Shown in pieces: positions 10,611 to 39,326 of a DNA stretch of 64,000 nucleotides. The first letter of the stretch is position 1. Each line of letters opens with the position of its first letter. The DNA is from Nitrospirota bacterium (GTDB lineage: Bacteria; Nitrospirota; JACRHJ01): assembly GCA_021784575.1 (NCBI GenBank), contig JAJYHX010000001.1, forward strand, positions 539,995-603,994, read 5' to 3'. Below the pieces are notes generated by a model, which worked only from the letters and a program-made list of their open reading frames with translations, had not been told where the DNA came from and did not search any database. Position numbers and translations under genes: made by a program.

Positions 10611-10626
10611 TGGTTCGATTTTTGCA
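10611..10626 (+). promoter_or_regulatory. sigma-54 (-24/-12) promoter at the head of the paralogue array
   Basis: TGGTTCGATTTTTGCA has GG-N10-GC spacing and a TTGCAT -12 box. It sits in a 289-bp intergenic region. Confidence 0.6.
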
Positions 10627-10659
10627 TAATGCTCGGAAGGGAGCAGTTTATCTTAGTGA

Positions 10660-11505
10660 TTGACGAGTAAGGCCGCTTCTGTTAACAATATAAGAATCAA
10701 CGGGGTAGAGATAGTGAAGAGTCAGGTGAAGTGGGGTGTTGTTCGCTTCAAGATCGCCGCTTATGTCGCTGTTGCGGCGGTTGTTGTCCTTGCGTTAATC
10801 GGTCTTGGCGGCTGTGCGACTTCCGCCGGCAGGTCTGCCGGCTCGGCCTCCGCTTCCGGCGTCCGGGGCGTTGTGACGACGCCTGTCGAGGGCGCATACA
10901 TATTCGTCTACGAGAAGGGCGCGGAGCCTCACGGCCCGCCTTATGTCATGTCCGAGCCCACGAAGGCCGACGGCAGTTTTGAGGTCGGTCTCCCCGACGG
11001 CGAGTATACGATAGTCGCCCGCAAGCACAAGGACGGCGAGCCGGGAAGCCCGCTCAGGGAAGGCGTGGACAAGAAAAGCCCGATGGCGGATATTATCGTG
11101 AAAAAAGGCGTTATCCAGACGCAGAACTTCGTCATCAGGACGAAGGAGGACGACAAGAAATATTTCGGCGCCTGGGCGCCCTCCGATACGTCCATATCCG
11201 GGAAGATACTCGACAGCGACGGCAACCCCATGAAGAACTTCCGCGTGCAGGTATACACATACGCGCAGATGTCGGAGAGGCCGAAGTACGTATCCGACAA
11301 GACCGGGCCGGACGGCAAATTCGTCGTATACCTCCCGAAGGGCGGGACTTATTACCTCCAGGCGCGGGATACTTTCGGAGGCCCCCCGAAGGTGGGCGAT
11401 TTTTATGGCAGGTACGACGAAGGGACGGTTGACCCGTCGGGTGTTATGCTGAGGAAGGGTCAGAAGATAAAGGACATAGATATAACGGTGCACAAGGTCT
11501 GGTAA
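10660..11505 (+). CDS. lipoprotein with 2 transthyretin/CarboxypepD_reg-like repeats
   Basis: Lipobox LIGLGGC. Repeats are seen in GVRGVVTTPVEGAYIFVY...DGSFEV..GEYTIVARKH and ISGKILDSDGNPMKNFRVQVY...DGKFVVYLPKGGTYYLQAR. The start is uncertain (TTG 10660, GTG 10714 or GTG 10726). Confidence 0.7.
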   Translation: MTSKAASVNNIRINGVEIVKSQVKWGVVRFKIAAYVAVAAVVVLALIGLGGCATSAGRSAGSASASGVRGVVTTPVEGAYIFVYEKGAEPHGPPYVMSEPTKADGSFEVGLPDGEYTIVARKHKDGEPGSPLREGVDKKSPMADIIVKKGVIQTQNFVIRTKEDDKKYFGAWAPSDTSISGKILDSDGNPMKNFRVQVYTYAQMSERPKYVSDKTGPDGKFVVYLPKGGTYYLQARDTFGGPPKVGDFYGRYDEGTVDPSGVMLRKGQKIKDIDITVHKVW

Positions 11506-11532
11506 TTTTTTAAATCCTGAAAGGAGGGTTTT

Positions 11533-13185
11533 ATGAAGGTTATCGGCAGGTTTGCGATGCTGGCCCTGCTGGTCGGGCTGGTCATCTATGCCGCATCCGC
11601 CAATGCGGCAAAGAACTTCCACTTCTTCCGGAACGTGGCGAAAGAGGCGGGGGTTGACGACAACGGGCACGGCAAGGGCGTGATACTGTTCGACTACGAC
11701 GGCGATGGACGGCCCGATATTTTCAAGTCCAACAAGGGCGGCCATAACGTCCTTTATCACAACGACGGCAACGGCCATTTCTCCAATGTAACCGTGAAGG
11801 CCGGGTTGTGGGACACCGGTTTCTCGATGGGTTCCGTGATGGGCGACCTCACTAACGACGGCCACGAGGACTTAATCGTCGCCAAGGGCGGCAGGTACGA
11901 GGTTGATTCCGTAAGGGTCTACAAGGGCCTGGGGGGCGGCAAGTTCAAGGACGTTACAGAGTCCTCGGGTCTCGCCGGCTACAAGGACTTCACCTACGGC
12001 GCGCTCCTTTGCGACTTCGACCACGACGGTAAGCTCGACCTCTTCCTCTCCAACTACGGCGTGCACAGCGAGGACAGGCTCTTCCATAACGAGTCCACCC
12101 CCGGCCACATCAAGTTCCGGGACGTAACGAAGCAGGCCGGACTCGGCAAGGTGCGCGGCTGGAGCTGGAGCGCGCAGGCGGTGGACGTTAACGAGGACGG
12201 CTGGGACGACCTCTACGTCTGCCGGGGCCGCTATCCCGCGGGCGAGCCGAACAAGCTCTACTTAAACGTCAGCACGCCCGGTCATATCAGGTTTGCGGAC
12301 TACTCCAAACAGTCCGGGCTTGACGACCCGAACTGGACCCTCGGCGCGGCCTGGGCGGACTACGACCACTCCGGCCACATGAGCGTCTACATCTCTAATT
12401 ATGTCGGCCCCAACAGGCTTATGAAGGGCGACGGCACCGGGCACTTCACGGACGTTACCCACTTCGCCGGGCTCGACGACAAGCCCGACCACTGGGGAAA
12501 AGGCCCGTGCTGGGTGGACATCAACAACTCCGGCTACCCCTCTCTATACGAGGCGGACTGCAAGTTCGCAAGCCAGCTCTACTTAAACGACCGTAACGGC
12601 AAGTTCACGAACATTACGGAGCAGAACCCGGATTGCAAGATGACGGCCTTCCGCAAGAAAGGCGTGGCCTGCGGAGACCTCTTCGGCAACGGCTCTCTCG
12701 ACCTCTACGTCGTCAACTGGGCCGAGCCTGCCGCGCTTCTTAAGAACCTGAACGTCAACAAGAACTGGATAGAAGTTGACGCCAAAGGCACTGTCAGCAA
12801 CATGGACGGCGTAGGCACCATGGTGCGCGTCTTCGATGCCGGGCACATGGGCGACATGAGGCACTACAGGGGCGAGAGCGAAGTCCAGACCGCGACCGGC
12901 TTCTGCGCCCAGAACCCACTTACCCAGCACTTCGGCGTAAACCACAGGCGCAACTACGACATCGAGGCGGTATTCCCGAGCGGGCTTATAGCCTACAGAC
13001 TGAATGTCCACACCGCCCAGAGGATAAAGATAGTAGAGCCAGGCTCCCTGGCCATGCAGAAGAAGCTCTACCCGATGGCCCTGGCGTCCAATGGTCTTCG
13101 CTATCCGCTCTCCGTGGCCGTGGCCTCTCCCTATAACCCCGGCATGAGCGACGTGTTCAATGCGAGCGCCTGCGCGAAATACTAA
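11533..13185 (+). CDS. FG-GAP/VCBS repeat protein with ASPIC/UnbV C-terminus (CRTAC1-like)
   Basis: 550 aa with a signal peptide and repeated DxDGDGxxD(I/L)(F/Y) motifs (DYDGDGRPDIF, DFDHDGKLDLF, NEDGWDDLYV). The C-terminus reads NWIEVDAKG...DGVGTMVRVF. Confidence 0.8.
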   Translation: MKVIGRFAMLALLVGLVIYAASANAAKNFHFFRNVAKEAGVDDNGHGKGVILFDYDGDGRPDIFKSNKGGHNVLYHNDGNGHFSNVTVKAGLWDTGFSMGSVMGDLTNDGHEDLIVAKGGRYEVDSVRVYKGLGGGKFKDVTESSGLAGYKDFTYGALLCDFDHDGKLDLFLSNYGVHSEDRLFHNESTPGHIKFRDVTKQAGLGKVRGWSWSAQAVDVNEDGWDDLYVCRGRYPAGEPNKLYLNVSTPGHIRFADYSKQSGLDDPNWTLGAAWADYDHSGHMSVYISNYVGPNRLMKGDGTGHFTDVTHFAGLDDKPDHWGKGPCWVDINNSGYPSLYEADCKFASQLYLNDRNGKFTNITEQNPDCKMTAFRKKGVACGDLFGNGSLDLYVVNWAEPAALLKNLNVNKNWIEVDAKGTVSNMDGVGTMVRVFDAGHMGDMRHYRGESEVQTATGFCAQNPLTQHFGVNHRRNYDIEAVFPSGLIAYRLNVHTAQRIKIVEPGSLAMQKKLYPMALASNGLRYPLSVAVASPYNPGMSDVFNASACAKY

Positions 13186-13303
13186 TAGGGGCAGGTGGTC
13201 AAGCGGGTGGAGGTGCGAGACTGGAAGGATGGGGGGAAGGCAATTTGACGCCCGGAGAAATGGAGAGCCGCCTTCCCCGGTTTGGACATGATTAAATAAA
13301 TCA

Positions 13304-13345
13304 GCCGCCTATGGGTAAGTTCAGCCCGTAGGCGGCCTGTTTTTG
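13304..13345 (+). terminator. rho-independent terminator
   Basis: GCCGCCTATGGG (13304-13315) pairs with CCCGTAGGCGGC (13325-13336) with one G-T pair, followed by CTGTTTTT. Confidence 0.7.
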
Positions 13346-13376
13346 TAACGCCGGCACTATAACGGCCCGGAGCAAT

Positions 13377-14483
13377 ATGAGAGTCTCAGCGATAAAAAAC
13401 GCGGTATTGGTTTTCCTGATATGCGCCCTGTGTTGTCTTGTTTTTCCAGCCGCCTCTTCCGCCGCACAGACAGGCTTTGTCACGGGCAGGGTCATGTTCC
13501 ACGCGAAGCCTATGCCGGGCGCTTCGGTATATGCATATACCGACCCGGCAGACCTCTTCAGAAAGGAGTCCGCGCCGTCCGTGATAAGCGGCCCCGACGG
13601 CACGTTCAAAATGAAGCTCGCACGCGGGTCTTTTTATCTCGCGGCAATGAAAAAACTTACCGGGCCCGGCAAGGATGCCGCCGGTCGACCTGTCCCAGGG
13701 GATCTCTACGCCTTCTACGGCGGGAACCCCGTCATGATCGACCCGTTCAGGACTGCGAAGATAACCATAAACCTGATGGTAAAACCGAAAAACCGGAAAT
13801 CCGCGCCTTGCGAATTAAAAGGAAAAGGCGGCGTCGAGGGAACCGTCACGCTCGACGGCAAACCTCTCGACGGCGTTACGCTTTACATTTACCTCGACTC
13901 CAACAGCTCCTTCAGGGGCCTCGGATATTACATGTCCCCGCCTACCGGCGTGGATGGCCGCTTCAAAATGAGGATGAACGAGGGGACGTATTACCTTGTG
14001 GCGAGGAAGCGGATGAACAGGGAGGTTACGGGCCCGCTTAAGGCGGGGGATTACTACGGCTATCTGGATACGAACCCCCTCGTGGTGCGCAAGGGAAAGG
14101 TGTTGCGCGTCGAGTTCCCGGTGATGATGAAAGTGGAAAAGGCCGCGCCGGGCGGGCAGGGCTTTACCATCGTCTCCGGGACCATAAAGGACAAAAGCGG
14201 GAAGCCGCTTAAAGGTATGTACGCCTGCCTGTATAAGAACGACACGATGACCAACCGGCCAGCGATAGTCTCCGGCAAGACCGGCGCGGACGGGGTTTTT
14301 CGCCTGGAAGTGCCGTTTTCCGGCAAATATTATCTCGGTGCAAGGAGTGTCCTCGGCAAGCCCGTTGACAACGGCCAGTACTGGGGGCGCTACGACGGAA
14401 ACCCCGACCATTCCGTGGTCATCGTAGCCGGGAAGACGGTCGGCGGCCTCGACATAACGGCAGACATTGTGGGCGGGAAATGA
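13377..14483 (+). CDS. exported protein with 3 transthyretin/CarboxypepD_reg-like repeats
   Basis: 368 aa with a signal peptide and three ~110-aa units, each with a G.V...GKP..G..VY.Y core plus YYLVARKR...GPL.AGDYYGY..NP. Confidence 0.75.
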   Translation: MRVSAIKNAVLVFLICALCCLVFPAASSAAQTGFVTGRVMFHAKPMPGASVYAYTDPADLFRKESAPSVISGPDGTFKMKLARGSFYLAAMKKLTGPGKDAAGRPVPGDLYAFYGGNPVMIDPFRTAKITINLMVKPKNRKSAPCELKGKGGVEGTVTLDGKPLDGVTLYIYLDSNSSFRGLGYYMSPPTGVDGRFKMRMNEGTYYLVARKRMNREVTGPLKAGDYYGYLDTNPLVVRKGKVLRVEFPVMMKVEKAAPGGQGFTIVSGTIKDKSGKPLKGMYACLYKNDTMTNRPAIVSGKTGADGVFRLEVPFSGKYYLGARSVLGKPVDNGQYWGRYDGNPDHSVVIVAGKTVGGLDITADIVGGK

Positions 14484-16474
14484 CAGGTGCGGGACGACAA
14501 TCATTAACGACATGGATGTTCGTAATATTTTTCGCCTTTTCCCTTCCGCTTTCCGCGTCTGCCGCGGGACCTGCCGTATATAATAAATCCAATTCCACCA
14601 TAACAAAAGATACCACCTGGAGCGGGACGGTTCTGGTGGATTGCGTGGTGTTCGTGCCGGATGGCGTGACGCTGAAAGTCGCGCCCGGAACCACCGTGCT
14701 CTTCAAAAAAATCGCCGCGCCGCCCGGAAACGCCCGGGAATCGTCCCGGATTCTAATTCCCGGAAGCGGTATACGGGTCGAAGGGAAGATTATAGCCGAG
14801 GGCGAAAAAGGCAGGGAAATAACCCTTACCTCCGCCGAGAAGACGCCCAAACCGGGCGACTGGGGCTGTGTTTTTATTGACCACTCCGCGGGAAATGTTT
14901 TTTCCCGGTGCCGGTTTATGTATTCCGCGTATACGATTCACGCGCACTTCTCGCGCCTGTCCGTTTCCCGCTGTGTCATCACGAAAAACATCGACGGGAG
15001 CCGCCTTGGAATTTGCAGGGCGAGCTTCGATCACTGCAACATAAAAAATAACTCCGGCAAGGGGCTGAACTTCTGGCAATCGAAGGTCGATGTGACATTC
15101 TGTAACATTACGGGCAACTGGGACGGGATATTTTTAAACGCAAAGGACTCCGCCTGCAACATCGAGCACAATAATATCTGCGGCAATCGCGGGATGAATT
15201 TGCGTCTTGGGGATTTCCACAAGGACAACATAAAGCTCTCCGAGGACTGGTGGGGGGCGGCGGATCCGGCGAAAATCAGAAAGAAAATCTACGACAAGGC
15301 CCAAGACCCGGCGGTAGGCAGGGCGGATATTATACTTCCGCTCTCGCGGGAAGTCCTTGGCGCGGGGCCTGACGGGCCCGGGATAAAAATAAAGTGGAAG
15401 TTCAAGGCCGGTGCATATGTCGACGGCGGCGCGGTGGAGGCTAACGGCGCGGTATATTTCGGCTCGTGGGACAAAAACTTCTATGCCGTCCGCGCGGACG
15501 ACGGCAGGTTAATCTGGAAATTCGACGCCGGGGACTGCGTGGACTCTACCCCGGCGATTGCGGACGGGAATGTCTATTTCGGTTCCTGGAACCGGTATAT
15601 CTACTGCCTGAACGAAAAAAACGGGAAACTTGTCTGGAAATTCCGCATGCCGCCAAGCAACTTCGACGACCATCGGCAGGCGTCGCCGGTTGTTTATGAC
15701 AACGTGGTTTATATGGGCGGGTTCAATGGGGTTATTTACGCCCTGAATGCCGAAACCGGCGGGAAAATATGGGAATTCAAAACCCACGGGCCTGTCCGGA
15801 GCAGGCTTCTTCTGTCTTCGTGGGCGTCGCCCGGCATTAAGCCGCAAGGCAAGCTTCCATGTATTTATTTCGGTTCCGGCGACAAGTTCTTGTATTCGCT
15901 TGGGCTTGCCGACGCTCATGTGTGCCGGGAGATCAAAACCGGCGGCGCCGTTCTCAGCTCTCCCGCCTTCGACAACACGAAAACCACGGCCTCCTGCGTT
16001 TATTTCGGCTCCGCGGACGGCAAAGTCTATTGTTTTAACGAGGTTACCGGGCAAATCCTATGGGAATACGACACCCACTCCATAATTGTATATTCCTCTC
16101 CTTTAATCCTCGCCAATCTCGTCTGCATCGGCGATTGCGCCGGGACACTCAACGCCGTGGATAAAAATACCGGCAAGGCTGTCTGGAAATTCACCGGAGG
16201 GGGTGTCATATATTCGTCACCCGTGGCGGCCCGGGCTGGTCGACCGGCGGCGGGGGCCACATCGGGCCGTGCTGTCGAAGTGGCTTCAGGAGCGAAAATA
16301 CTTTACGGAGACAACTCCGGCGATGTATACTGTCTCAATCCTAACACCGGGGGATTGCTGGCTTTTTTCAAGGCCGGCAACGCCGTGCAGAACATTACGG
16401 CCAGCCCCGGCGGGGCTACGGTATACGCTTCTTCCCGTGACGGTTATCTCTATGCCCTGACGGTTTTGGAGTAG
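14480..16474 (+). CDS. exported fusion protein: NosD-like right-handed beta-helix + PQQ/BamB-like beta-propeller
   Basis: 664 aa, with an ATGA overlap with the previous gene and a signal peptide. The N-terminal module is TTWSGTVLV...LKVAPGTTVLF...PGDWG, followed by beta-helix turns and DWWGAADPAKIRKKIYDK. The C-terminal repeats are of the GAVYFGSWDKNFYAV..DGRLIWKF type. Confidence 0.75.
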   Translation: MTGAGRQSLTTWMFVIFFAFSLPLSASAAGPAVYNKSNSTITKDTTWSGTVLVDCVVFVPDGVTLKVAPGTTVLFKKIAAPPGNARESSRILIPGSGIRVEGKIIAEGEKGREITLTSAEKTPKPGDWGCVFIDHSAGNVFSRCRFMYSAYTIHAHFSRLSVSRCVITKNIDGSRLGICRASFDHCNIKNNSGKGLNFWQSKVDVTFCNITGNWDGIFLNAKDSACNIEHNNICGNRGMNLRLGDFHKDNIKLSEDWWGAADPAKIRKKIYDKAQDPAVGRADIILPLSREVLGAGPDGPGIKIKWKFKAGAYVDGGAVEANGAVYFGSWDKNFYAVRADDGRLIWKFDAGDCVDSTPAIADGNVYFGSWNRYIYCLNEKNGKLVWKFRMPPSNFDDHRQASPVVYDNVVYMGGFNGVIYALNAETGGKIWEFKTHGPVRSRLLLSSWASPGIKPQGKLPCIYFGSGDKFLYSLGLADAHVCREIKTGGAVLSSPAFDNTKTTASCVYFGSADGKVYCFNEVTGQILWEYDTHSIIVYSSPLILANLVCIGDCAGTLNAVDKNTGKAVWKFTGGGVIYSSPVAARAGRPAAGATSGRAVEVASGAKILYGDNSGDVYCLNPNTGGLLAFFKAGNAVQNITASPGGATVYASSRDGYLYALTVLE

Positions 16475-16482
16475 TAATTTCA

Positions 16483-16498
16483 GGGCACGGAAATTGCA
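16483..16498 (+). promoter_or_regulatory. sigma-54 (-24/-12) promoter
   Basis: GGGCACGGAAATTGCA is a near-consensus GGCACG-N4-TTGCA. It lies 72 nt upstream of the ATG at 16570. Confidence 0.7.
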
Positions 16499-16569: not shown

Positions 16570-17970
16570 ATGGATTTCCGGTTTTTAAAATTTTCTTTTG
16601 CCGCGGCGGGGTTTGTTGCGGCATTAATTTCCTCTTCTGCCGCCGCGGACATGGCGGTAAACCAGCCTATTGTTTTAAGCAAGGATACAGTCTGGTCGGG
16701 GAGGGTGAGCGTCGTGCAGGCGGTGAAAGTGCCCAAGAAGGTTAAGCTAAGGATAATGCCGGGGACGATGATAAAGTTCGGCGACAAGGCGGGGCTGACC
16801 GTCGAAGGAGTCCTGAAGGCGGCGGGGACGAAGTCCGCTCCGATTACCTTCACGTCTGTGGACAAGTCCCCAGTGGATGGGTGCTGGCCGGGCATAAACT
16901 TCAGCGAATCTGGAAAAGGCTCCGAGCTTAAGAGGTGCGTAATCTCCTATGCCGCTTCGATAAGCATAGACTCCTGCTCGCCGGAGATTAAAAACTGCAC
17001 GATTACACAGGGCCGGCAGGGAATAGAGCTTGCGAGAAAGGCAAAGCCGGTGATTTCCGGGAATACCATCCGGGACATTGCCGGATCTGGCATAAGCTGC
17101 CAGATGGGCTCATTCCCGACCATAGCCGGGAACACCATAGCCGGGTGCAGGCAATACGGCATTTTTTCTTCCCAGAATGCGGAGCCGCTTATAAAAAACA
17201 ATACCATTACCGGCTGCGATACCGGAATATCCGTCCAGGCGGCCCAGATCATAGAGGGAAACGTAATAAAAGACAGCAAGTGCGGCCTGTTCGCCAGCAT
17301 CGCCGGGAATGTCTTTGCCATCAAGGGCAACCGTTTCATAAACAGCGTAACGGGCGCGGTATGCCAGCAGTATACCTCTCCGGTATTCGAGAAAAACGAG
17401 TTTACGGGGAACAAGGAGGGCCTGGTGTGCTTCCGGGCGTCCAGCCCTCTTGTAAAAAACAACGATTTTTACAAGAACAAGAAAGCGATTCTCTGCATCC
17501 AGATATCCCACCCGACCATCACCGCCAACAACATACACGACAACGGCAAAGGGATATACCTGCATCTCTCATCCTACGCCCTGATAAACGGCAATAACAT
17601 CTGGGACAACAAAATCCAGGTGGAGCTCGGCAACATGTCGTCGGACTGGGAGCGCCGGGTCAAGAATAAGCCGACAAGGGGGCGCCAGGCCCAGAATATC
17701 AACATGGTAAGCCGGGCAAAGGCGGTGCCTGAAAAGCTGAGCGACGGGGCGAAGATAATGGGCAGCGTGGACGCCACCGGCAACTGGTGGGGCGCGGACG
17801 TTACGCGGGAAATGGACAGCAAGGGGCCGCAGGCAAACATAAAAAGCCTCATAGACGGTTACGACCGCCCGACGCGCACCTACAAAGGCTACTCCGGCGT
17901 ATACCTCGAAGACCGCATAAATTACAGAGGCTGGAAAAAGACAAGAATAAAAGACGCCGGGATTAATTAG
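16570..17970 (+). CDS. exported right-handed parallel beta-helix (NosD-like) protein
   Basis: 466 aa with a signal peptide, the shared N-terminal module (DTVWSGRVSV...LRIMPGTMIKF...ITFTS), many ~23-aa beta-helix turns (I.GN.I...) and NWWGADV near the C-terminus. Confidence 0.8.
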   Translation: MDFRFLKFSFAAAGFVAALISSSAAADMAVNQPIVLSKDTVWSGRVSVVQAVKVPKKVKLRIMPGTMIKFGDKAGLTVEGVLKAAGTKSAPITFTSVDKSPVDGCWPGINFSESGKGSELKRCVISYAASISIDSCSPEIKNCTITQGRQGIELARKAKPVISGNTIRDIAGSGISCQMGSFPTIAGNTIAGCRQYGIFSSQNAEPLIKNNTITGCDTGISVQAAQIIEGNVIKDSKCGLFASIAGNVFAIKGNRFINSVTGAVCQQYTSPVFEKNEFTGNKEGLVCFRASSPLVKNNDFYKNKKAILCIQISHPTITANNIHDNGKGIYLHLSSYALINGNNIWDNKIQVELGNMSSDWERRVKNKPTRGRQAQNINMVSRAKAVPEKLSDGAKIMGSVDATGNWWGADVTREMDSKGPQANIKSLIDGYDRPTRTYKGYSGVYLEDRINYRGWKKTRIKDAGIN

Positions 17971-18002
17971 AAAAATTGGGTCATTCCGAAAGGGGTTTAT
18001 TG

Positions 18003-21101: not shown

Positions 21102-21132
21102 TATCTGTAGGGGCTCAATTTATTGAGCCCAT

Positions 21133-21156
21133 GGGCGCGATGAATCACGCCCCTAC
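21133..21156. repeat. REP-like palindromic element, family 1 (GGGCGC-N-GCGCCCCTAC)
   Basis: GGGCGCGATGAATCACGCCCCTAC has a second copy at 52677-52702. It is preceded by the perfect hairpin GGGCTCAAT-TT-ATTGAGCCC. Confidence 0.55.
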
Positions 21157-31644: not shown

Positions 31645-31648
31645 TTAA

Positions 31649-33034: not shown

Positions 33035-33048
33035 GAACGGAATTTGCA
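33033..33048 (+). promoter_or_regulatory. sigma-54 (-24/-12) promoter for the beta-helix / transporter / rSAM operon
   Basis: AGGAACGGAATTTGCA has GG-N10-GC spacing and a TTGCAT -12 box. About 21 of 26 nt are identical to the promoter at 16483. It lies very close to the ATG at 33067/33073. Confidence 0.55.
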
Positions 33049-33066
33049 TTTTACTATATCGTACGA

Positions 33067-33735
33067 ATGCGGATGAAACCCATTAAATTTTTTACAATCG
33101 GTTTTATTCTCGCCCTTATTGTTTCCTCGCGCGCCCTTGGCAGCGACAGGCCAATGCAGGTGGAGGGAGTGATAAAAAAGAGCGCAGAATGGTCGGGAAC
33201 TATACTAATAACCGGCGATACGCTTGTGCCTGAAGGCGTAACGCTGAAGATAGCTCCGGGCGCCAAGGTCTTGTTCGTCTCAAGCGAAAGCTCGAAGATT
33301 GAGCCCCTGTATCTTTCGATGCAGACCGAGCTCCTTGTCCGGGGCAGACTCCTGGCAAAGGGCACGGAGAAGGCGCCGATAATCTTCGGTTCCGCGGGCC
33401 GGGACGAGGATGGAGACAGTATAAAGCCCAAAAAGGGCTGCTGGGCCGGCCTGATATTCGACGGCCCGGACTCGTCCGACAGCGTTGTCTCTCATGCGTC
33501 CATCAGGTTCGCGGATTCGGCGATAACGACAATAAATTCTTCGCCGGTCTTTAGTTTCTGCGACCTCACGGACGGCAATTACGGTATCTCCTGCCTCGGC
33601 GAATCATGGCCCATGGTCTATTCCTGCAACATTGCCGGGAACGACTTCGGGGTGTTGTCGGGCAAAGGGGCCGAAGCGGGGATTGACCACACGAAGGTGG
33701 AAAATAACAAGGTGGATTTTATTACGAGGCAATGA
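33067..33735 (+). CDS. exported beta-helix family protein, short (N-terminal module only plus a few turns)
   Basis: 222 aa with a signal peptide and the shared module AEWSGTILITGDTLVPEGVTLKIAPGAKVLF...APIIFGSA...GCWAGLIF. There is no NWWG tail. Confidence 0.65.
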   Translation: MRMKPIKFFTIGFILALIVSSRALGSDRPMQVEGVIKKSAEWSGTILITGDTLVPEGVTLKIAPGAKVLFVSSESSKIEPLYLSMQTELLVRGRLLAKGTEKAPIIFGSAGRDEDGDSIKPKKGCWAGLIFDGPDSSDSVVSHASIRFADSAITTINSSPVFSFCDLTDGNYGISCLGESWPMVYSCNIAGNDFGVLSGKGAEAGIDHTKVENNKVDFITRQ

Positions 33736-33738
33736 TCC

Positions 33739-34653
33739 ATGGTACAGGACTTCTTGAGCAACTTGCAGGGCAGTGGTATGGCGGGGTTTTATATCGCGGC
33801 GTTTATCCTGGGCGCATTTCACGCGCTCGAACCCGGGCACGGGAAGACCGTTGTCGCGGCGTATCTCATCGGCTCAAAGGCGAAGGTTTACGAGGCGTTT
33901 GTGCTCGGAGTCATTGTAACCTTCACGCATACCTTCAGCATAATTGTCCTGGCAATCCTGGCGAGGTTTTTCGCCGAGAGGTTCACCGGTCTGCAACTGC
34001 ATATTTATCTTGGTTTTGCCGCGGCGGCCATGATACTCGGCGTCGGCCTCTCCATGATATGGACACGTTTCCGGGCCTTGAGAAGGCATATACGTCACCG
34101 CAATGAACATGCCGACGCCCATGACCATGAACACGAGCATGACCATGATCACGAGCATGACCACGAACACGAGCACGTGCATGATGAACATTCTCATATG
34201 CATTCCGACCATTACCATGACCACGACCATGACCACGACCATGACCATGAGCATGACCATGAGCACGACCACGAGCATCCTCATGCGCATTCCCACGGAG
34301 GGTTTTCCCATACGCACTATGTTCCGGGGCCGGGCGAGGAACCCTCGCTATGGAAGCTGTTTCTGCTTGGCATATCAGGCGGCATCGTGCCCTGTCCTGC
34401 GGCCTTCGCCCTTCTTCTCGCGGCTGTTTCCGCAGGCGCCGTTGCCAAAGGCTTAAGCCTCGTGATAGTCTTTTCGCTCGGCCTGGCGTTTGCGCTGATT
34501 ACCATAGGCGTAGGCGTTGTCAAGACGGCGGGGTTTGCCGGCAGGTTCATGGATATGGAAAAGGCGGCGCCGTACATATCGCTTGCGAGCGCCGTGCTTG
34601 TGACGCTTATAGGCGTCGCGACATTGTACGGCTCGATAATGCATGTAATTTAA
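33739..34653 (+). CDS. RcnA/NicO-like nickel/cobalt-type transporter with a His-rich loop
   Basis: 304 aa with the signature FHALEPGHGK in TM1, a central loop of about 79 aa holding about 34 His (HDHEHEHDHDHEHDHEHEH...), and further TM helices including GGIVPCPAA. Confidence 0.75.
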   Translation: MVQDFLSNLQGSGMAGFYIAAFILGAFHALEPGHGKTVVAAYLIGSKAKVYEAFVLGVIVTFTHTFSIIVLAILARFFAERFTGLQLHIYLGFAAAAMILGVGLSMIWTRFRALRRHIRHRNEHADAHDHEHEHDHDHEHDHEHEHVHDEHSHMHSDHYHDHDHDHDHDHEHDHEHDHEHPHAHSHGGFSHTHYVPGPGEEPSLWKLFLLGISGGIVPCPAAFALLLAAVSAGAVAKGLSLVIVFSLGLAFALITIGVGVVKTAGFAGRFMDMEKAAPYISLASAVLVTLIGVATLYGSIMHVI

Positions 34654-34667
34654 GAAACTGCGCTATT

Positions 34668-35786
34668 ATGAATAAGGTCTTGTTTATATTAATTTTACTC
34701 TTTCCCGGGGCCGCGCTCGCAAGCGGCGGCATACTGCGCCTGCACGACCAGACGTATAATATCGACCAGACCTGGAGCGGCAAGGTTATAATCGACGGTG
34801 TTATTCAATTCGGGCCGAAGGCGACCCTTACGGTCCTGCCCGGGACGAAAGTCGAGTTTACAAGGAACGACGCCCACGGCATCGGCATTGGCGAGAACGA
34901 GATATACATCCAGGGCAGGCTTGTCGCAAAGGGGACAGCGGACAAACCGATAGTGTTCACTTCGGCCGAAAAAACCAAAAGGCCGGGGGACTGGGGCGCG
35001 GTGAATATAATGGTGAGCCAGGGCAAGATAAACAGGCTTTCCCATTGCATAATCGAGTATGGTTATCGCGGCTTTCACATGCATTTCTCCAAAGCGTCGA
35101 TAACCGATTCCAGTCTCAGGCACAATTACATGGGCATTCAATGCCAGGACTCGTCTCTCGACATTGAGCGCTGCGAGATAAACGATAACGAATGCGGGGC
35201 GATAGTCTTTAGAGACTCCAGGCTCAAGATACGCGACTGCAACATACACGACAACCCCTGGGGGATAAGGTTCCTTTACGGCAGGGCGGATATTACGGGC
35301 AACGTATTGACGGGGAACATCTTAAACGGGATTACGTTCAGCGGGGCGAAGGTAAGGGTATCAGGCAATATCCTGCGCGGAAACAGGAAAGGAATCTCGG
35401 CGGATAAATCCCGGGTCGAGATAACAGGCAACGTGCTGGCGGAAAACTACGAAAGCGGGCTGTACCTTAAACGCTCGAAGGGCGTTGTTACCGGCAACCA
35501 GATTACCGGGAACGGCTATACCGGAATATCCGTTACGGATTCGGACGTGAAAATAACCGGGAACAACATAAGGGCGAACTGCATCTGGGCGATAGACAAC
35601 GGCGGCAAACAGGACGTGGATGCGGCAGGCAACTGGTTCGGGCCTTCCTTCAGGGTGGACCCGGCGAGGCTATTGTACGACAGAGGCAGGGATGCGGCCC
35701 TGGGAAAGGTGACCATCCTCCCCCAGGCGGACAGGCCTTTTATAATAACGCCCGATGTTTCCGTTCCGGCGGGCAGGCATGAATAA
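34668..35786 (+). CDS. exported right-handed beta-helix (NosD-like) protein
   Basis: Trimmed to the ATG at 34668 (MNKVLFILILLFPGAALA). It has the module QTWSGKVIIDG...LTVLPGTKVEF...PIVFTSAEKTKRPGDWG, beta-helix turns (ITGN.L.GN...) and GNWFGPSF...LLYDRGRDAALGKVTILP. Confidence 0.8.
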   Translation: MNKVLFILILLFPGAALASGGILRLHDQTYNIDQTWSGKVIIDGVIQFGPKATLTVLPGTKVEFTRNDAHGIGIGENEIYIQGRLVAKGTADKPIVFTSAEKTKRPGDWGAVNIMVSQGKINRLSHCIIEYGYRGFHMHFSKASITDSSLRHNYMGIQCQDSSLDIERCEINDNECGAIVFRDSRLKIRDCNIHDNPWGIRFLYGRADITGNVLTGNILNGITFSGAKVRVSGNILRGNRKGISADKSRVEITGNVLAENYESGLYLKRSKGVVTGNQITGNGYTGISVTDSDVKITGNNIRANCIWAIDNGGKQDVDAAGNWFGPSFRVDPARLLYDRGRDAALGKVTILPQADRPFIITPDVSVPAGRHE

Positions 35787-35809
35787 GGGAGGGTCGGACT
35801 TAGATTTTT

Positions 35810-36205
35810 ATGAGATTAATCTTTCTTCTGTTTTTTATTCTGACGTTAATACCTGCTCCGGCCTTCGCGCACTATACTGGGGAGCTGCTGCCGGATTCGG
35901 TCGCGGTCATGGAATATCAGATGATTATCAGTATGCAGCCGAACGACATGTTGACCAGGAACAAGCTTGGTATGGTGTATCTCAGGCAGAACAAGCTGGA
36001 TAAGGCAAAAGAGCAATTTCTGGAAATATTGAAGATAGACCCGAAAAATTTCGACGCCCTGGACAGCCTCGGCATTGTCTCAAGCAGGCTTGGAGACCCT
36101 TCGCAGGCGGTGGCTTGGTACGAAAGGGCGCTCAAGATAAAGAACGACAATGGTTGCAGGCAGCGGTTCCTGGCGGAAAAGGCCTTGCTGAAGGCGAAAA
36201 AATAA
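35810..36205 (+). CDS. exported TPR-repeat protein
   Basis: 131 aa with a signal peptide and TPR helices (NKLGMVYLRQNKLDKAKEQFLEILKIDPKNFDALDSLGIV...AVAWYERALKI). Confidence 0.7.
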   Translation: MRLIFLLFFILTLIPAPAFAHYTGELLPDSVAVMEYQMIISMQPNDMLTRNKLGMVYLRQNKLDKAKEQFLEILKIDPKNFDALDSLGIVSSRLGDPSQAVAWYERALKIKNDNGCRQRFLAEKALLKAKK

Positions 36206-36216
36206 GGAGGCTACTT

Positions 36217-37215
36217 TTGAGAAAGATATTACTTTCATCGATTCTTCTGGTTATGCTGACCTCTCTTGCGTCGTGCGCGGAGGTAAAGCCGATTGCGAAA
36301 TCCGAGCTCCATGAGAAAAGACTCGGGCTCTATACCATGATGAAGGATGCCACGTGGGAAGGCCGGATAAGGATAACGGGCGACGTATACGTGAAAAAGG
36401 GTGCGACGCTTACAATAAAGCCGGGGACGGTTATAAGGTTCGACACGATCGCGCCCAGGCTTGAGTCTCAGGGCGGAAGGAACATGTTCAGCGTCGGCGG
36501 CCCCGGAATCCCGTATTTCCCCGGCGCGGAGATAATCGTCCGGGGGAGGATAATCGCCGTGGGCACGAAGGACAGGCCGATAATCTTCACTTCCGACGAT
36601 CCATCTCCCAGGCCGGGGATATGGGGAGCGGTAAACCTCCTCGGCTCGAACGGCGACGTATTCAAATACTGTCGCATATCCTATGCCTACAACGGCATAC
36701 ACAACCACGCCTCCCACGCGAAGGTGACGAAGTGCATATTCCATGACAACGGGACGGCGCTGTCGTTTATGAAAGCGAATTTCAACAACACCTGCGTAAT
36801 GGACATAGAGGACAACACCATTGTGGGCAATCTCTCCGGCATTTCCGCCAGGTATGCGCACATAACGATTCTCCATAACGACATATCGAACAACAAGTTC
36901 TACGGCATCTGGCTGCACGAGGGCGATAAAGGCAAGATCGCCTACAACGACATAATGAGAAACGGCAAGGGCATCTTTCTTTTCAGGGCGGCGCCGTTGA
37001 AGGTGCATTGGAACAACATAGCCCATAACAGGGAATATAACATTGCGCTGGCCGTGGAGACCCCCAATAATGTAGACGCCGCGGACAACTGGTGGGGCAC
37101 CATCGACCCGGTAAAGATTAAGGCCAGGTTTTACGACAAAAGGACGGACGACAGCCTTGGGCTGGTCAATTTCAGGCCATTCCTCAAGAAAAGGGTGCCC
37201 GACACAGTGAAATGA
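36217..37215 (+). CDS. beta-helix (NosD-like) lipoprotein
   Basis: Trimmed to the TTG at 36217, 6 nt after AAGGAGG. It has the lipobox LTSLASC, the module ATWEGRIRITGDVYV...LTIKPGTVIRF...PIIFTSDDPSPRPGIWG, and the tail DNWWGTIDPVKIKARFYDKRTDDSLGLVNFRPFL. Confidence 0.75.
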   Translation: MRKILLSSILLVMLTSLASCAEVKPIAKSELHEKRLGLYTMMKDATWEGRIRITGDVYVKKGATLTIKPGTVIRFDTIAPRLESQGGRNMFSVGGPGIPYFPGAEIIVRGRIIAVGTKDRPIIFTSDDPSPRPGIWGAVNLLGSNGDVFKYCRISYAYNGIHNHASHAKVTKCIFHDNGTALSFMKANFNNTCVMDIEDNTIVGNLSGISARYAHITILHNDISNNKFYGIWLHEGDKGKIAYNDIMRNGKGIFLFRAAPLKVHWNNIAHNREYNIALAVETPNNVDAADNWWGTIDPVKIKARFYDKRTDDSLGLVNFRPFLKKRVPDTVK

Positions 37216-38009
37216 AAAAGATCGCAATCATAGCGGCTGTCGTCGCCGCAGTCTTGTTCTCCGCGCGGGTCCGCGCAGGTACGCTTGAGGCGAACGCCGT
37301 CTGGACGGGAACGGTAAAGGTGTCGGGCCGGTTATTGGTGAAGCCCGGCGTGACCCTTAAAATCGAGCCGGGGACGGTTGTGAAATTTGTCCCGGCGAAG
37401 CCGGACGATACCGGGCTCGCGCAGTGCGGTATGCTGATACTTGGGACGATAATAGCGGACGGACGGCCCGGCGCGAGGATAAGATTTACCTCGGCGGCGC
37501 AAAGGCCCAGGCCGGGAGACTGGGGAGAGATCCAGATTATAAGGAGCAAGGGAAGCTCTTTTACGGACTGCGACTTCCGCTTTGGCGGATGGGGACTTCA
37601 TATGCATCACACGAAGATAAAAATCTCCGGCTGCACCTTCATGCGCAACCGTTTCGGAGGCATTCGCGGAAAGGGCGGCAGGGTTGAGATTGCCGGCTGC
37701 ATACTCAAGGGGATGCACATAGGCATACGTTACCTAAGCGGCGGGCCGTATATCCACAACAGCGATATAACGGACGACAGGACCGGGATATTCTGGCGCC
37801 AGGGATGCAATCCAAGGATCAAATATAATAACTTCCAGGGCAACAGGGATTACGACATAAAGCTCGGCGAGTTGCAGTCCGGCAATATAGACGCCCGCCT
37901 GAACTGGTGGGGAGACGGAAGACCGAAGCTCTACGACCGTCATCGGGAGAGTTATATCGGCAGGGTCATTACGAAACCGGCGCTTTCGGCCAGGGCAAAA
38001 ATAAACTGA
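37212..38009 (+). CDS. exported beta-helix (NosD-like) protein, short form
   Basis: 265 aa with an ATGA overlap and a signal peptide. It has the module AVWTGTVKVSG...LKIEPGTVVKF...IRFTSAAQRPRPGDWG and the tail LNWWGDGRPKLYDRHRESYIGRVITKP. Confidence 0.75.
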   Translation: MKKIAIIAAVVAAVLFSARVRAGTLEANAVWTGTVKVSGRLLVKPGVTLKIEPGTVVKFVPAKPDDTGLAQCGMLILGTIIADGRPGARIRFTSAAQRPRPGDWGEIQIIRSKGSSFTDCDFRFGGWGLHMHHTKIKISGCTFMRNRFGGIRGKGGRVEIAGCILKGMHIGIRYLSGGPYIHNSDITDDRTGIFWRQGCNPRIKYNNFQGNRDYDIKLGELQSGNIDARLNWWGDGRPKLYDRHRESYIGRVITKPALSARAKIN

Positions 38010-38023
38010 GGCAGGGGATTGCA

Positions 38024-38335
38024 ATGCGGAATATCAGGCGGAACCCGGACATAATCTGGCGCGAGGAGGAAGAGGCCAGGGAAGAAGCCGTCAAGGCTAT
38101 GGAGCGCGGCGATGACGCGTCCGGGGAAGGGACGGCGCTGCTTGTGGAATCCGGGATGATGCACCAGCTTAACCTCCTTGGCGGCGAGATATGGAAGCTC
38201 CTCGACGGTATCGACGAAGAAGCCCTTGTGGACAGGCTCGCGGAGGTATTCGACGTGGACAGGGAGACGCTCTCGCGCGACGTCCGGGACTTCCTTATCG
38301 ACATTGACAGGAGGGGCTGGCTGGTCCATGAGTAG
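38024..38335 (+). CDS. PqqD-family protein (RiPP-recognition-element-like peptide chaperone)
   Basis: 103 aa from the ATG at 38024. The pattern is NPDIIWRE...GTALLVESGMMHQLNLLGGEIWKLLDG...LVDRLAEVFDVDRETLSRDVRDFLIDIDRRGWL. Confidence 0.75.
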   Translation: MRNIRRNPDIIWREEEEAREEAVKAMERGDDASGEGTALLVESGMMHQLNLLGGEIWKLLDGIDEEALVDRLAEVFDVDRETLSRDVRDFLIDIDRRGWLVHE

Positions 38336-39326
38336 AATACCTTTTTCGCCCATAACGATCAACTGGACTCTTACCTTCCGGTGCAACTTCAACTGCCGCC
38401 ACTGCTACTCCAGGCCGGAGAAAGCGCCTGAGCTGCCGACGGAACAGGTGAAGGAGATAATGGCGAAGGTTGCAAAATATAAAGTTCCGTTTATAAATTA
38501 CGGCGGAGGAGAACCGCTCCTCAGGAGCGACCTCTTCGAGCTTACCGGGTATGCGGCGGCCCTCGGCTTCAACGTCTCCATGAACACCAACGGGTTTCTG
38601 ATGACGGAAGAGAAGGCGGCCCTGGCCAAAGAGTCCGGTTTTAAGACCGTCGGCGTATCCATAGACAGCACAAGGCCCGAAGCGCACGACGACTTCCGCA
38701 ACACAAAAGGCAGCCACAATAAGGCCGTGAGCGCGGCGAAGTTCCTGAAAGATAAGGGCGTGCGCCTTACAATATCCTCCGTCATATGCCGGATAAATTA
38801 TACTGAGTTCGAGGACCTCGTGCGCCAGGCGAGAGACCTCGGCGCGGAGCAGATTTCGCTGCACAACTACAAATGCGCCGGGATGGGTTTCACCAACAGG
38901 GACGAGCTCGACCTCTCGCCCGCGGAGTGGAAGGAATTTTACCTGAAGGCCATCGCGCTCAGAGAGAAGGTAACGGATATAAGAATATCGATGGACGACC
39001 CCATCACGGCGACGATACACAAGGCCCCGGAGCAGGCGATTGTAAAGGGAAGCACATGCGGGAAGTTGTCTCTCAATATCCGCGCGAACGGCGACGTTAC
39101 GCCGTGCGGTTTTATTCCTGTTGTCATAGGCAACCTGCTCACGGACGACCTGAAAGACCTCTGGGACAACTCGAAAGTCCTTGAGAAGATGCGCAACAAA
39201 AAACCGAAGGAGAAATGCCTTACCTGCAAGCACTACGAGGACTGCCTCGGCGGCTGCACCGCCCGCGCCTACGCCACCACCGGCGACTTCAACTCCCCCG
39301 ACCCGCACTGCTGGGTGGCGAAATAA
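38328..39326 (+). CDS. radical SAM enzyme with SPASM domain
   Basis: 332 aa, with the ATG at 38328 overlapping the PqqD gene by 8 nt. It has CNFNCRHC (CX3CX2C), GGGEPLL, and the SPASM cysteines CGKLSLNIRANGDVTPCG ... CLTCKHYEDCLGGC ... HC. Confidence 0.85.
   Translation: MSRIPFSPITINWTLTFRCNFNCRHCYSRPEKAPELPTEQVKEIMAKVAKYKVPFINYGGGEPLLRSDLFELTGYAAALGFNVSMNTNGFLMTEEKAALAKESGFKTVGVSIDSTRPEAHDDFRNTKGSHNKAVSAAKFLKDKGVRLTISSVICRINYTEFEDLVRQARDLGAEQISLHNYKCAGMGFTNRDELDLSPAEWKEFYLKAIALREKVTDIRISMDDPITATIHKAPEQAIVKGSTCGKLSLNIRANGDVTPCGFIPVVIGNLLTDDLKDLWDNSKVLEKMRNKKPKEKCLTCKHYEDCLGGCTARAYATTGDFNSPDPHCWVAK

Follow-up and report, generated by a model that had tools for sequence, protein, structure and literature searches.

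What does a long run of genes encoding almost exclusively exported proteins do in a Nitrospirota bacterium, and does it constitute a single system? This question is raised by a 64,000-nucleotide stretch of contig JAJYHX010000001.1 (hereinafter, the window), in which an earlier interpretation made from the letters alone (hereinafter, the sequence-only reading) had recognized a sigma-54-controlled array of exported paralogs. Comparison with other genomes demonstrates that the cluster is the expanded Nitrospirota form of GeoRSP, a catalogued pair of a PqqD-family peptide chaperone and a radical SAM (rSAM)/SPASM protein, together with conserved envelope partners, and that its 32 genes, all on one strand, form one sigma-54-controlled regulon spanning positions ~5167–39326 (~34 kb). 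No characterized system shares its composition; two of its pieces already have names in databases, and literature searches yielded no relevant paper on the system or its composition.

Domain assignments were made with the Pfam and NCBIfam models and their cut-offs, and orthologous or related loci retrieved for comparison are referred to by L-numbers (L002 to L170). The invariant hub of the system is formed by exported NosD-like beta-helix proteins, transthyretin-like (TTR) repeat (lipo)proteins, and a truncated OpuAC-fold lipoprotein of the substrate-binding protein (SBP) type, denoted SBP201 in the window. The hub is always joined by a cation permease, NicO in the window and ArsP_1-type elsewhere. 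The usual partners are a YedE-type selenium/sulfur channel with a PhnD-like protein, a ResB-like protein, and the cytoplasmic PqqD–rSAM/SPASM pair; the frequent ones are an AAA-like protein and a redox arm consisting of a Sec/Tat NapH–NapG polyferredoxin and a Tat-exported DUF362 protein with the LarA fold.

The nearest relatives of the cluster come from Nitrospirota metagenome-assembled genomes (MAGs), at ~92% identity, and full synteny is retained both in close Nitrospirota MAGs and, at 50–70% identity, in the more distant loci L005 and L006. Rearranged versions with the same families were found in “Deltaproteobacteria” and unclassified MAGs (L007, L009, L011, L017, L020, L077) and in L057. 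A compact operon is present in cultured Desulfuromonadales (Geoalkalibacter ferrihydriticus, Desulfuromonas versatilis, Geothermobacter ehrlichii) and in L170, with the gene order AAA-like, FmdE, ArsP_1, (FG-GAP), TTR, beta-helix plus propeller, (beta-helix), SBP~200, DUF362, polyferredoxin, DUF3047; the FG-GAP/ASPIC protein is also encoded in L170. Overall, the same families occur together, in differing gene orders, in six or more lineages that belong to different phyla.

The partners of the GeoRSP genes were counted over five independent lineages, namely, the window type, L092, L093/L095/L096, L086, and L167. Beta-helix, TTR, and SBP~200 proteins and a NicO or ArsP_1 permease are encoded in five out of five, the PhnD-like protein with the TPR protein and YedE in four out of five, and the ResB-like protein and the SPASM-only protein in three out of five each. 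These partners also surround the GeoRSP genes in loci retrieved with the rSAM protein. For example, the Geobacteraceae MAG locus L086 comprises a cytochrome, a beta-helix protein, a TTR protein, SBP~190, a ResB-like protein, ArsP_1, a cupin, PqqD, rSAM, and the SPASM-only protein. Loci L093, L095, and L096 encode three beta-helix proteins, TTR, SBP, PhnD-like, TPR, YedE-like, ArsP_1, cupin, PqqD, rSAM, and SPASM-only proteins, and L092 and L167 have the set of the L093 type, but with NicO. The PhnD-like gene lies inside the GeoRSP loci in L092, L093, L095, L096, and L167, and shorter ResB-like proteins are encoded in L086, L167, and loci of the L007 type.

In the window, the plus strand from ~10.6 to 39.3 kb is an uninterrupted run of genes. 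Nearly all non-membrane proteins carry an N-terminal hydrophobic segment, a lipobox, or a Tat motif, and within units the gene junctions overlap or leave gaps of at most 30 nt, in agreement with the tight packing noticed by the sequence-only reading. The start of the cluster, placed by that reading at position 10611, is in fact at ~5167: the unit at 5167–10371, with the YedE, Sec-lyase-like, and DUF3343 genes and the AAA-like gene, belongs to the system because the PhnD-like/TPR/YedE trio sits in GeoRSP loci and the AAA-like gene sits in the hub elsewhere. The domain calls of the sequence-only reading were all reproduced with Pfam and NCBIfam: five TTR/CarboxypepD_reg proteins with two to three repeats (30–37% identical pairwise, with a common C-terminal motif: g01, g03, g06, g07, g15), two FG-GAP/ASPIC proteins, two Tat-signal DUF362 proteins (g09 and g12, 52% identical) next to a NapH-like polyferredoxin, the HEAT lipoprotein, the ResB-like protein, NicO, the TPR protein, the histidine kinase, the sigma-54 activator, PqqD, and the rSAM/SPASM protein. 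The seven beta-helix proteins (g04, g05, g08, g19, g21, g23, g24) do share one N-terminal module, but the C-terminal motif ascribed to all of them is present in six, as (N/D)W(W/F)G, and is absent from g19. The list was incomplete in two respects, as SBP201 and the PQQ-like beta-propeller of g04 had been missed. That reading had also found no match to a characterized pathway; this stands insofar as the literature searches were empty, whereas the PqqD/rSAM part proved to be catalogued already as GeoRSP, without a function. The proposed coherence of a sigma-54-controlled envelope system is borne out by the gene neighborhood, conserved in Nitrospirota (50–95% identity) and rearranged in Desulfuromonadales, Geobacteraceae, and others.

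The sigma-54 promoters are credited because of their position and conservation, not the raw motif count: the strict consensus has five matches in the window against 3.15 expected, which is not above chance, and a looser score yields 12 matches against 13.6 expected from shuffles, with no enrichment. Five elements, where at least three had been proposed, are intergenic and lie just upstream of first genes (5167, 9423, 10611, 16483, 33033), and each of them recurs at the equivalent site in orthologous loci whose proteins are 50–95% identical (L081, L002, L021, L005, L006, L089, L090). For the AAA-like gene, the conservation crosses phyla, as the element is found 60–95 nt upstream of the ortholog in L081 and in three Desulfuromonadales genera (L080, L083, L084), being a perfect TGGCAC-N5-TTGC in two of the latter three. 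Both features of a sigma-54 regulon are present, that is, –24 GG/–12 GC elements upstream of the operons and an enhancer-binding protein gene in the cluster; the L167 system, too, is flanked by, or ends with, genes for a histidine kinase and a sigma-54 response regulator. Sigma-70-like promoters precede the activator gene and the HEAT gene. Given the conserved sigma-54 control, the conditions of expression should be findable.

Several other candidate signals were noted. A repeated intergenic motif, GCGATGAATCA, was considered and rejected, as its two copies do not exceed chance, and an Rfam scan detected no riboswitches or other RNA families in the window. A terminator-like hairpin with a T-run is located at 13303–13345, after the first FG-GAP gene (ending at 13185), and a 50-nt near-perfect palindrome is located at 21107–21156, between g08 and the first DUF362 gene. 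On the minus strand, a divergent unit (122–4951) with its own sigma-54-like element (4951–4936) encodes a TsuA/YeeE-like transporter, a YVTN-type beta-propeller, DUF4418, an FtsX/MacB permease, and an ABC ATPase. Collinear only in the close relatives L081 and L082, this unit may be co-regulated with the system.

The last two genes of the run, overlapping by 8 nt, are the GeoRSP pair proper. Both proteins pass the cut-offs of the respective models (Table 1), and the GeoRSP name is already attached to homologs in public database records; in NCBIfam the function of the pair is unassigned, and the catalogue entry covers only two to three genes. Literature searches found neither a relevant paper on GeoRSP nor any that describes the envelope partners conserved around it. 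The third signature protein (SPASM-only, TIGR04304) is present in L086, L093, and L167, missing from L089–L092, and not encoded in the window, where tblastn with the L086 protein matches only the SPASM domain of the rSAM protein itself. Hence, the window contains a GeoRSP system with two of the three signatures. Exact-sequence look-ups gave no record for the window polyferredoxin or the Geopsychrobacter rSAM protein.

Two further arrangements bear on the target of the pair. TIGR04133/TIGR04134 is another catalogued combination, of an rSAM/SPASM protein and a CarboxypepD_reg-like lipoprotein, and g01 matches TIGR04134 weakly; by analogy, this gives a hint of a possible rSAM substrate. In Deferrimicrobium-type loci (L010, L012, L013, L015, L019, L022, L025; e.g., L013, 10001–15287), which lack an rSAM gene, the order is polyferredoxin, DUF362, PqqD-like protein, SurA_N-like chaperone, thioredoxin/AhpC-TSA-like protein, and GTPase, an order hinting at a possible action of the PqqD-like protein on DUF362 or at a possible role for it in maintaining periplasmic proteins.

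The redox arm spans the membrane. The N-terminal part of the polyferredoxin is NapH-like, with four transmembrane (TM) segments and two cytoplasmic [4Fe-4S] motifs; in the C-terminal part, RRGVIT (residues 305–310) precedes TM5 and is followed by a predicted periplasmic NapG-like domain with four [4Fe-4S] motifs, and the NapH and NapG models match the respective halves. Of 78 orthologs, 71 retain the RR motif, and 28 Cys residues are at least 90% conserved. Judging by this architecture, the protein is a dual Sec/Tat member of the PFD family, for which Sec- and Tat-dependent insertion has been shown with an MLMS-1 protein (Tooke et al., 2017, PMC5449189): the NapH-like 4-TM part, the twin-arginine motif, the weakly hydrophobic TM5, and the NapG-like four-cluster domain are combined in one polypeptide in both. 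The cited study lists PFD homologs from Nitrospirae and Latescibacteria and deals with membrane insertion only, assigning no partner or function, whereas here we report a near-obligate pairing of PFD with a Tat-DUF362 gene, which adjoins the polyferredoxin gene in ~70 of the 79 loci found with the polyferredoxin. Any other neighbor is shared by at most 11 of the 55 loci with stand-alone pairs; hence, the DUF362–polyferredoxin pair is a self-contained module recruited by the system. Assignment to the NapGH quinol dehydrogenase was rejected (NapH, 76.9 bits vs. a cut-off of 213; NapG, 93.7 vs. 269; no NapA or NapB). In L059, the DUF362 and polyferredoxin frames run as one 808-aa open reading frame (ORF; 4733–7159), possibly as a result of natural fusion or through an artifact of assembly.

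The periplasmic Fe–S domain of this electron conduit faces the Tat-exported DUF362 enzyme, whose Tat motif is nearly invariant and whose only invariant Cys implies that it is not itself an Fe–S protein. In the Foldseek search with the AlphaFold (AF2) model of g12, the best 19 PDB matches all belong to the family of LarA, the lactate racemase, which comprises nickel-pincer nucleotide enzymes (E from 1e-7 to 3e-5, probability 1.0, ~270 aligned columns), while at the sequence level no PDB relatives were found for the DUF362, beta-helix, or TTR proteins. LarA in turn matches PF04015 at E = 5e-5 over residues 83–246, and LarA and DUF362 share a Pfam clan; DUF362 itself matches only PF04015, with no match to Lar_N (PF09861) or LarA_C (PF21113) at E up to 10. 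In a home-made profile–profile alignment, the invariant H181 and K191 of DUF362 fall, at three gap settings, on His174 and the cofactor-tethering Lys184 of LarA, which is suggestive of a correspondence between these residues. Arg77 of the invariant WDR77xP motif is a candidate for LarA Arg75 (HTR75P) by motif inspection, outside the aligned region. On the other hand, LarA His200 falls in a LarA-specific insertion, leaving its equivalent uncertain; there is no His at the position of His108; DUF362 is ~150 residues shorter, is Tat-exported, and adjoins a polyferredoxin. Owing to insufficient depth of the profiles, hhalign and hmmsearch comparisons of the DUF362 profile with three LarA sequences produced no alignment of significance. 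LarB, LarC, and LarE were not seen in the 64-kb window or the retrieved flanks.

The sequence-only reading had argued that Tat export implies a cofactor loaded before export and that the polyferredoxin implies transmembrane electron delivery. This reasoning is strengthened by the internal twin-arginine motif and the periplasmic NapG-like domain characteristic of the PFD-type architecture, and by the LarA-like fold of DUF362. As to the overall function, we infer, as did that reading, a periplasmic metallo/redox machine.

Among the hub proteins, two TTR paralogs exceed the cut-off of the DUF4198 Pfam model. The only characterized DUF4198 member, Zcp, is a periplasmic metal buffer with the Zn-binding site H29/H31/H142 (PMC12663993). 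The TTR proteins resemble it in these scores, periplasmic location, and beta-sandwich fold, but their match is confined to the C-terminal ~60 profile positions (~141–209), they consist of tandem repeats, and they lack the His triad; hence, membership was rejected. In SBP201, the Cys that follows the signal peptide is invariant, and an ERTGT motif is present; the AF2 model of the protein (predicted local distance difference test, pLDDT, 94) has a truncated fold of the OpuAC/OpuBC/EgtU type (TMq ~0.8, TMt ~0.58). The family is rare (~100 representative clusters among 1.84 billion), and its gene lies within the hub gene cluster in 13 out of 13 loci from which it was extracted. SBP201 was also considered as a betaine or ergothioneine binder and rejected, as the fold fits but the aromatic cage is not conserved. 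Similarly, despite the ResB match of g16, System II cytochrome c biogenesis was rejected, since no CcsA-like gene is nearby; CXXCH motifs are absent from the 28 cluster proteins scanned (g01–g26, the AAA-like protein, and the desulfurase; the PhnD-like, 172-aa TPR, YedE, and DUF3343 proteins were outside the scan).

The first unit of the system adds a selenium/sulfur set. The YedE family has been reported only in Se-utilizing organisms (Lin et al., 2015, PMC5322559), and the trio of YedE, Sec-lyase, and DUF3343 has been described as a selenium-utilization signature (PMC5322559). In the window, YedE above the TIGR04112 cut-off is likewise followed by a Sec-lyase-family gene and then DUF3343, the difference being that PhnD-like and TPR genes precede the set, the AAA-like gene follows it, and all are embedded in an rSAM/envelope system. 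The desulfurase (7938–9143) is closest to selenocysteine lyase (SclA, 353.7 bits), although below the cut-off of 525, and the PhnD-like protein is under all NCBIfam cut-offs, resembling also the tetrathionate-sensing TtrS domain (72.8 bits). No selD, selA, or selB were found among the annotated ORFs of the window, those beyond ~42 kb having been listed without a family search. A check for selenoproteins, covering stop codons of the cluster genes, in-frame upstream TGA codons, and the frame upstream of the neighboring ArsM gene, yielded a single case, the TGA stop of g19, which is in the same frame as the NicO start and one codon apart from it (33733–33741), probably by chance; ArsM merely has a later start.

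The AAA-like protein, encoded by the next unit, has orthologs 55–65% identical across phyla, which sit beside the beta-helix/TTR hub in L080, L083, L084, L170, and loci of the L007 type. Ile replaces the Walker A Lys (GPLGVGIT) in ten out of ten aligned orthologs, and the C-terminal DCPHHY(A/E)F is invariant; possible roles of the protein are those of a pseudo-ATPase or of an adaptor that binds metal. In L007, genes for a 647-aa peptidase-U32-like protein (11993–13936) and a PIN-domain protein (14076–14684) lie between the beta-helix and AAA-like genes. In the three Desulfuromonadales genera, the AAA-led operon is back-to-back with a thiF-thiS-thiG-thiH-thiE operon carrying a thiamine pyrophosphate (TPP) riboswitch (L080, 7739–7844; L084, 7753–7855; L083, 9246–9357; minus strand), which is probably inherited synteny.

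As to what the system does, we tentatively favor, by analogy, a Nos-accessory-like machine for periplasmic trafficking and assembly of metal and chalcogen with a quinol-linked redox arm. In such a machine, a divalent metal of the Ni/Co type would reach the periplasm through NicO or ArsP_1; chalcogen species would be handled by YedE, the PhnD-like protein, the Sec-lyase-like enzyme, and DUF3343; and the beta-helix, TTR, and SBP lipoprotein paralogs would bind metal and chalcogen and hand them on in the periplasm. The polyferredoxin would pass menaquinol-derived electrons across the membrane to cofactor-loaded DUF362, keeping a periplasmic substrate or center reduced, the rSAM/PqqD pair would modify an exported protein, or make a small product, before export, and the histidine kinase with the sigma-54 activator would turn on the whole set. 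The likeness to the Nos accessory proteins (NosD/F/Y/L/R/X), which assemble a periplasmic Cu–S center, comprises periplasmic beta-helices, lipoproteins, a NapH-type polyferredoxin, a Tat-exported partner, and the theme of metal plus chalcogen. At the same time, no NosZ, NosF, NosY, or NosL is seen in the Pfam and NCBIfam results for genes at 5–40 kb, and the polyferredoxin lacks the NosR flavin domain. The resemblance concerns a possible mode of working and not membership, and the beta-helix proteins are not NosD.

Several observations weigh against this interpretation. With the NosD equivalog model TIGR04247, whose cut-off is 300, the beta-helix proteins reach 54.2 bits at best; the only models that they pass, NosD and Beta_helix of Pfam, are generic. 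The TTR proteins are low in His and Cys (two His each in g03 and g06) and no equivalent of the Zcp His triad; SBP201 has neither conserved metal ligands nor an aromatic cage; the identities of metal and chalcogen are taken from family names only; and no substrate of the rSAM protein was found. The mapping of pincer cofactor residues onto DUF362 comes from a home-made profile alignment, not confirmed by hhalign, in which the position of the Ni-ligand His200 is ambiguous. Moreover, the modules are separable: GeoRSP loci of the Geobacteraceae type have no DUF362 or polyferredoxin within 10 kb, DUF362 and polyferredoxin stand alone in ~55 loci with no other recurrent neighbor, and an AAA-like ortholog, in L169, has no hub nearby. 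Literature searches gave no paper or experiment on the function of any component. In L169 (10001–12302), the AAA-like protein, 64% identical, is encoded without a beta-helix/TTR hub within 10 kb; a SurA-like peptidyl-prolyl isomerase gene follows it, and DUF3047 and a MopE-like copper-binding protein are encoded near it.

A possible, if rather doubtful, alternative is defense of the envelope against metal or metalloid stress, with ZraSR-like sensing, efflux through NicO or ArsP_1, the paralogs acting as a sponge, and the polyferredoxin and DUF362 reducing toxic species such as selenite or a higher-valent metal. It agrees with the histidine kinase and response regulator scoring well, though below the cut-offs, against the ZraS and ZraR models, with NicO (39 His) being closest to the RcnA efflux model, and with ArsP_1 relatives resembling the SO_0444 Cu/Zn efflux family. 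The amplification of paralogs (five TTR, seven beta-helix) would suit a stoichiometric binder, the DUF4198 member Zcp is a periplasmic metal buffer, and an ArsM-type methyltransferase is recurrent near the cluster. However, the TTR and beta-helix proteins that would form the sponge are poor in His, Cys, and Met, neither a metallothionein-like protein nor a pump of the RND, CDF, or P type is encoded in the cluster, and simple efflux or a sponge would not be expected to involve rSAM/PqqD, the YedE, Sec-lyase-like, and DUF3343 set, or the AAA-like protein.

We regard as unlikely that the system makes a new extracytoplasmic redox cofactor or metallophore. Here, the rSAM/SPASM, PqqD, SPASM-only, and cupin proteins would synthesize, in the cytoplasm, a product derived from a peptide or resembling a tetrapyrrole, to be exported by a major facilitator superfamily (MFS), ArsP_1, or ResB-like protein and used by the beta-helix, propeller, and DUF362 proteins, with the quinone pool connected via the polyferredoxin, in parallel to pyrroloquinoline quinone (PQQ), mycofactocin, or heme made via AhbD/NirJ. 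The best characterized relatives of the rSAM protein are indeed AhbD (198.9 bits), NirJ2, MftC (174.8 bits), and PqqE; an MFS or ArsP_1 transporter gene lies immediately upstream of PqqD in L167, L086, and L093; ResB is a heme-handling family, the HEAT protein has repeats of the PBS-lyase type, one beta-helix protein carries a PQQ-like propeller, and the Tat export of DUF362 implies cofactor loading before export. PQQ, mycofactocin, and quinohemoprotein amine dehydrogenase (QHNDH) are similar in employing a SPASM rSAM protein, with or without a PqqD-type chaperone, and the products of the PQQ and QHNDH systems act in or go to the periplasm, but here there is no gene for a small precursor or gamma-subunit, a peptidase, or a dedicated ABC exporter. 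In maturation of ribosomally synthesized and post-translationally modified peptides (RiPPs) by rSAM and PqqD proteins, a short precursor gene stands beside that of the maturase, and none was found in the 10 loci or the window gaps: clustering of plus-strand ORFs of 20–130 aa over 10 loci yielded only PqqD and cupin as conserved, and ORFs preceded by a ribosome-binding site, sought in every intergenic gap of the window, included no candidate precursor peptide. In addition, no locus contains tetrapyrrole or other biosynthetic genes, the g04 propeller is far below the quinoprotein cut-offs, and the window lacks the SPASM-only, cupin, and MFS genes.

A bolder reading, which we consider distinctly unlikely, is that DUF362 represents a second, extracytoplasmic branch of the LarA-type nickel-pincer enzymes, receiving its cofactor in the cytoplasm, Tat-exported, and wired to the quinone pool through its own Sec/Tat polyferredoxin. 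GeoRSP would then be a Ni- and Se-dependent periplasmic machine, in which NicO would give the metal, YedE, the Sec-lyase-like enzyme, and DUF3343 would give selenium, and rSAM/PqqD would mature a beta-helix, TTR-like, or DUF362 protein. If true, the role of Se would be a new selenium-utilization trait beyond selenoproteins, selenouridine, and Mo-hydroxylases, and DUF362 with a nickel-pincer-type cofactor would become the first extracytoplasmic enzyme of this kind, as well as the first coupled to an iron–sulfur electron chain.

It is quite improbable that the polyferredoxin and DUF362 constitute a quinol-dependent periplasmic reductase of thiosulfate, polysulfide, tetrathionate, or selenite, whose product enters the cell by YedE, with the beta-helix and TTR proteins holding an insoluble or reactive substrate. 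DUF362 has no Mo, heme, or Fe–S site of its own, in ~55 loci the DUF362–polyferredoxin pair occurs without any chalcogen gene, and the universal cation permease would be left unexplained. In favor of such a reductase are the presence of YedE, the Sec-lyase-like protein, DUF3343, and the TsuA-like transporter on the divergent unit, the TtrS-like features of the PhnD-like protein, the origin of the hosts from S0/Fe(III)-reducing lineages, and the fact that NapGH-type modules normally feed periplasmic reductases (PMC5449189). Finally, a fortuitous juxtaposition of unrelated operons for surface proteins, a redox pair, a metal transporter, and a RiPP-like pair is hardly credible, even though other genomes contain the modules separately and every unit is equipped with a promoter of its own, given the recurrence of the same families in at least six lineages of different phyla, the common sigma-54 control, and the rare SBP201 family lying inside the hub cluster in all 13 loci from which it was extracted.

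Already under the conservative reading, that of periplasmic metal/chalcogen handling, the system would be an unreported widespread envelope function in subsurface anaerobes. It joins four items, the GeoRSP rSAM signature, the dual Sec/Tat polyferredoxin, DUF362 as the sister group of LarA, and the YedE channel, in one testable system. The system is present in isolates of the Desulfuromonadales, an order whose members respire metals and sulfur (Geoalkalibacter ferrihydriticus, Desulfuromonas versatilis, and Geothermobacter spp.). The coordinates of its genes and promoter elements are listed in Table 1.

Table 1. Genes and sigma-54 promoter elements of the system in the window.
Feature	Position	Strand	Comment
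Sigma-54 –24/–12 element TGGCATGTTAATTGCA	5167..5182	+	Upstream of PhnD-like gene; identical and at the same position in L081
PhnD-like periplasmic binding protein (PF12974)	5259..6179	+	E 1e-45
172-aa TPR protein	6181..6699	+	Always between PhnD-like and YedE genes
YedE-family putative selenium transporter	6680..7759	+	TIGR04112, 383.7 bits vs. cut-off 200
Class-V aminotransferase, EF2568-type cysteine desulfurase, Sec-lyase-like	7938..9143	+	TIGR01977, 463.8 bits vs. cut-off 377
DUF3343 (PF11823) Se/S carrier-like small protein	9200..9418	+	tblastn, 94% identity to PF11823 gene of L081/L082
Sigma-54 –24/–12 element TGGTATGATTCTTGCT	9423..9438	+	Upstream of AAA-like gene
Atypical single-domain CDC48-type AAA-like protein	9481..10371	+	Walker A GPLGVGIT without Lys; C-terminal DCPHHY(A/E)F
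Sigma-54 –24/–12 element TGGTTCGATTTTTGCA	10611..10626	+	Kept in L081
TTR/CarboxypepD_reg lipoprotein g01, 2 repeats	10660..11505	+	Start possibly 10714 or 10726
FG-GAP/ASPIC exported protein g02	11533..13185	+	32% identical to paralog g10
TTR repeat protein g03, 3 repeats	13377..14483	+	DUF4198, 50.5 bits vs. cut-off 34; CarboxypepD_reg
Beta-helix + PQQ-like beta-propeller protein g04	14480..16474	+	Same architecture in L080, L083, L084, L170, L007
Sigma-54 –24/–12 element GGGCACGGAAATTGCA	16483..16498	+	Kept in L081, L002, L021, L006, L005
Beta-helix protein g05	16570..17970	+	Beta_helix, 117 bits; NosD, 96 bits (Pfam)
TTR repeat protein g06	17976..19076	+	Start likely 18003
TTR repeat protein g07	19084..20241	+	Pfam, repeat comparison
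Beta-helix protein g08	20238..21101	+	Pfam, paralog comparison
Tat-signal DUF362 protein g09	21171..22103	+	DUF362, 162 bits; TAT_signal
FG-GAP/ASPIC exported protein g10	22103..23653	+	Pfam
SBP201, 201-aa lipoprotein, truncated OpuAC fold	23667..24272	+	Hub member everywhere; Pfam, AF2
Tat-signal DUF362 protein g12, LarA-like fold	24269..25174	+	AF2 pLDDT 90.4; fold search
Dual Sec/Tat polyferredoxin (predicted), NapH–NapG fusion	25180..26736	+	5 TM; RR 305–306; 6 [4Fe-4S] motifs
HEAT (PBS-lyase-type repeat) lipoprotein g14	26932..27840	+	Nitrospirota forms only
TTR lipoprotein g15, 2 repeats	27921..28673	+	Pfam, paralog comparison
ResB-like membrane protein g16	28674..29984	+	ResB PF05140, 229.7 bits
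HAMP sensor histidine kinase g17	29981..31522	+	Pfam/NCBIfam
NtrC-type sigma-54 activator response regulator g18	31649..33034	+	Sigma54_activat, 250 bits
Sigma-54 –24/–12 element AGGAACGGAATTTGCA	33033..33048	+	Kept in L002, L021, L006, L089, L090
Short beta-helix protein g19	33067..33735	+	N-terminal module only; no NWWG motif
NicO/RcnA-like His-rich cation permease g20	33739..34653	+	39 His
Beta-helix protein g21	34668..35786	+	Start corrected
Exported 131-aa TPR protein g22	35810..36205	+	Travels with NicO
Beta-helix lipoprotein g23	36217..37215	+	Start corrected
Beta-helix protein g24	37212..38009	+	Pfam, paralog comparison
GeoRSP PqqD-family peptide chaperone	38024..38335	+	TIGR04302, 107.9 bits vs. 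cut-off 100
GeoRSP radical SAM/SPASM protein	38328..39326	+	TIGR04303, 455 bits vs. cut-off 400

Downstream of the system, 1.6 kb beyond the rSAM gene, lies a gene for an ArsM-type arsenite methyltransferase (NF008823, 310 bits; 40898–41920, with the real start at ~41084). ArsM recurs 7–10 kb from the rSAM gene in two other Nitrospirota loci, L090 (~17.1 kb, minus strand) and L091 (~9.6 kb). A DinB gene is the next one after the rSAM gene both in the window and in L088.

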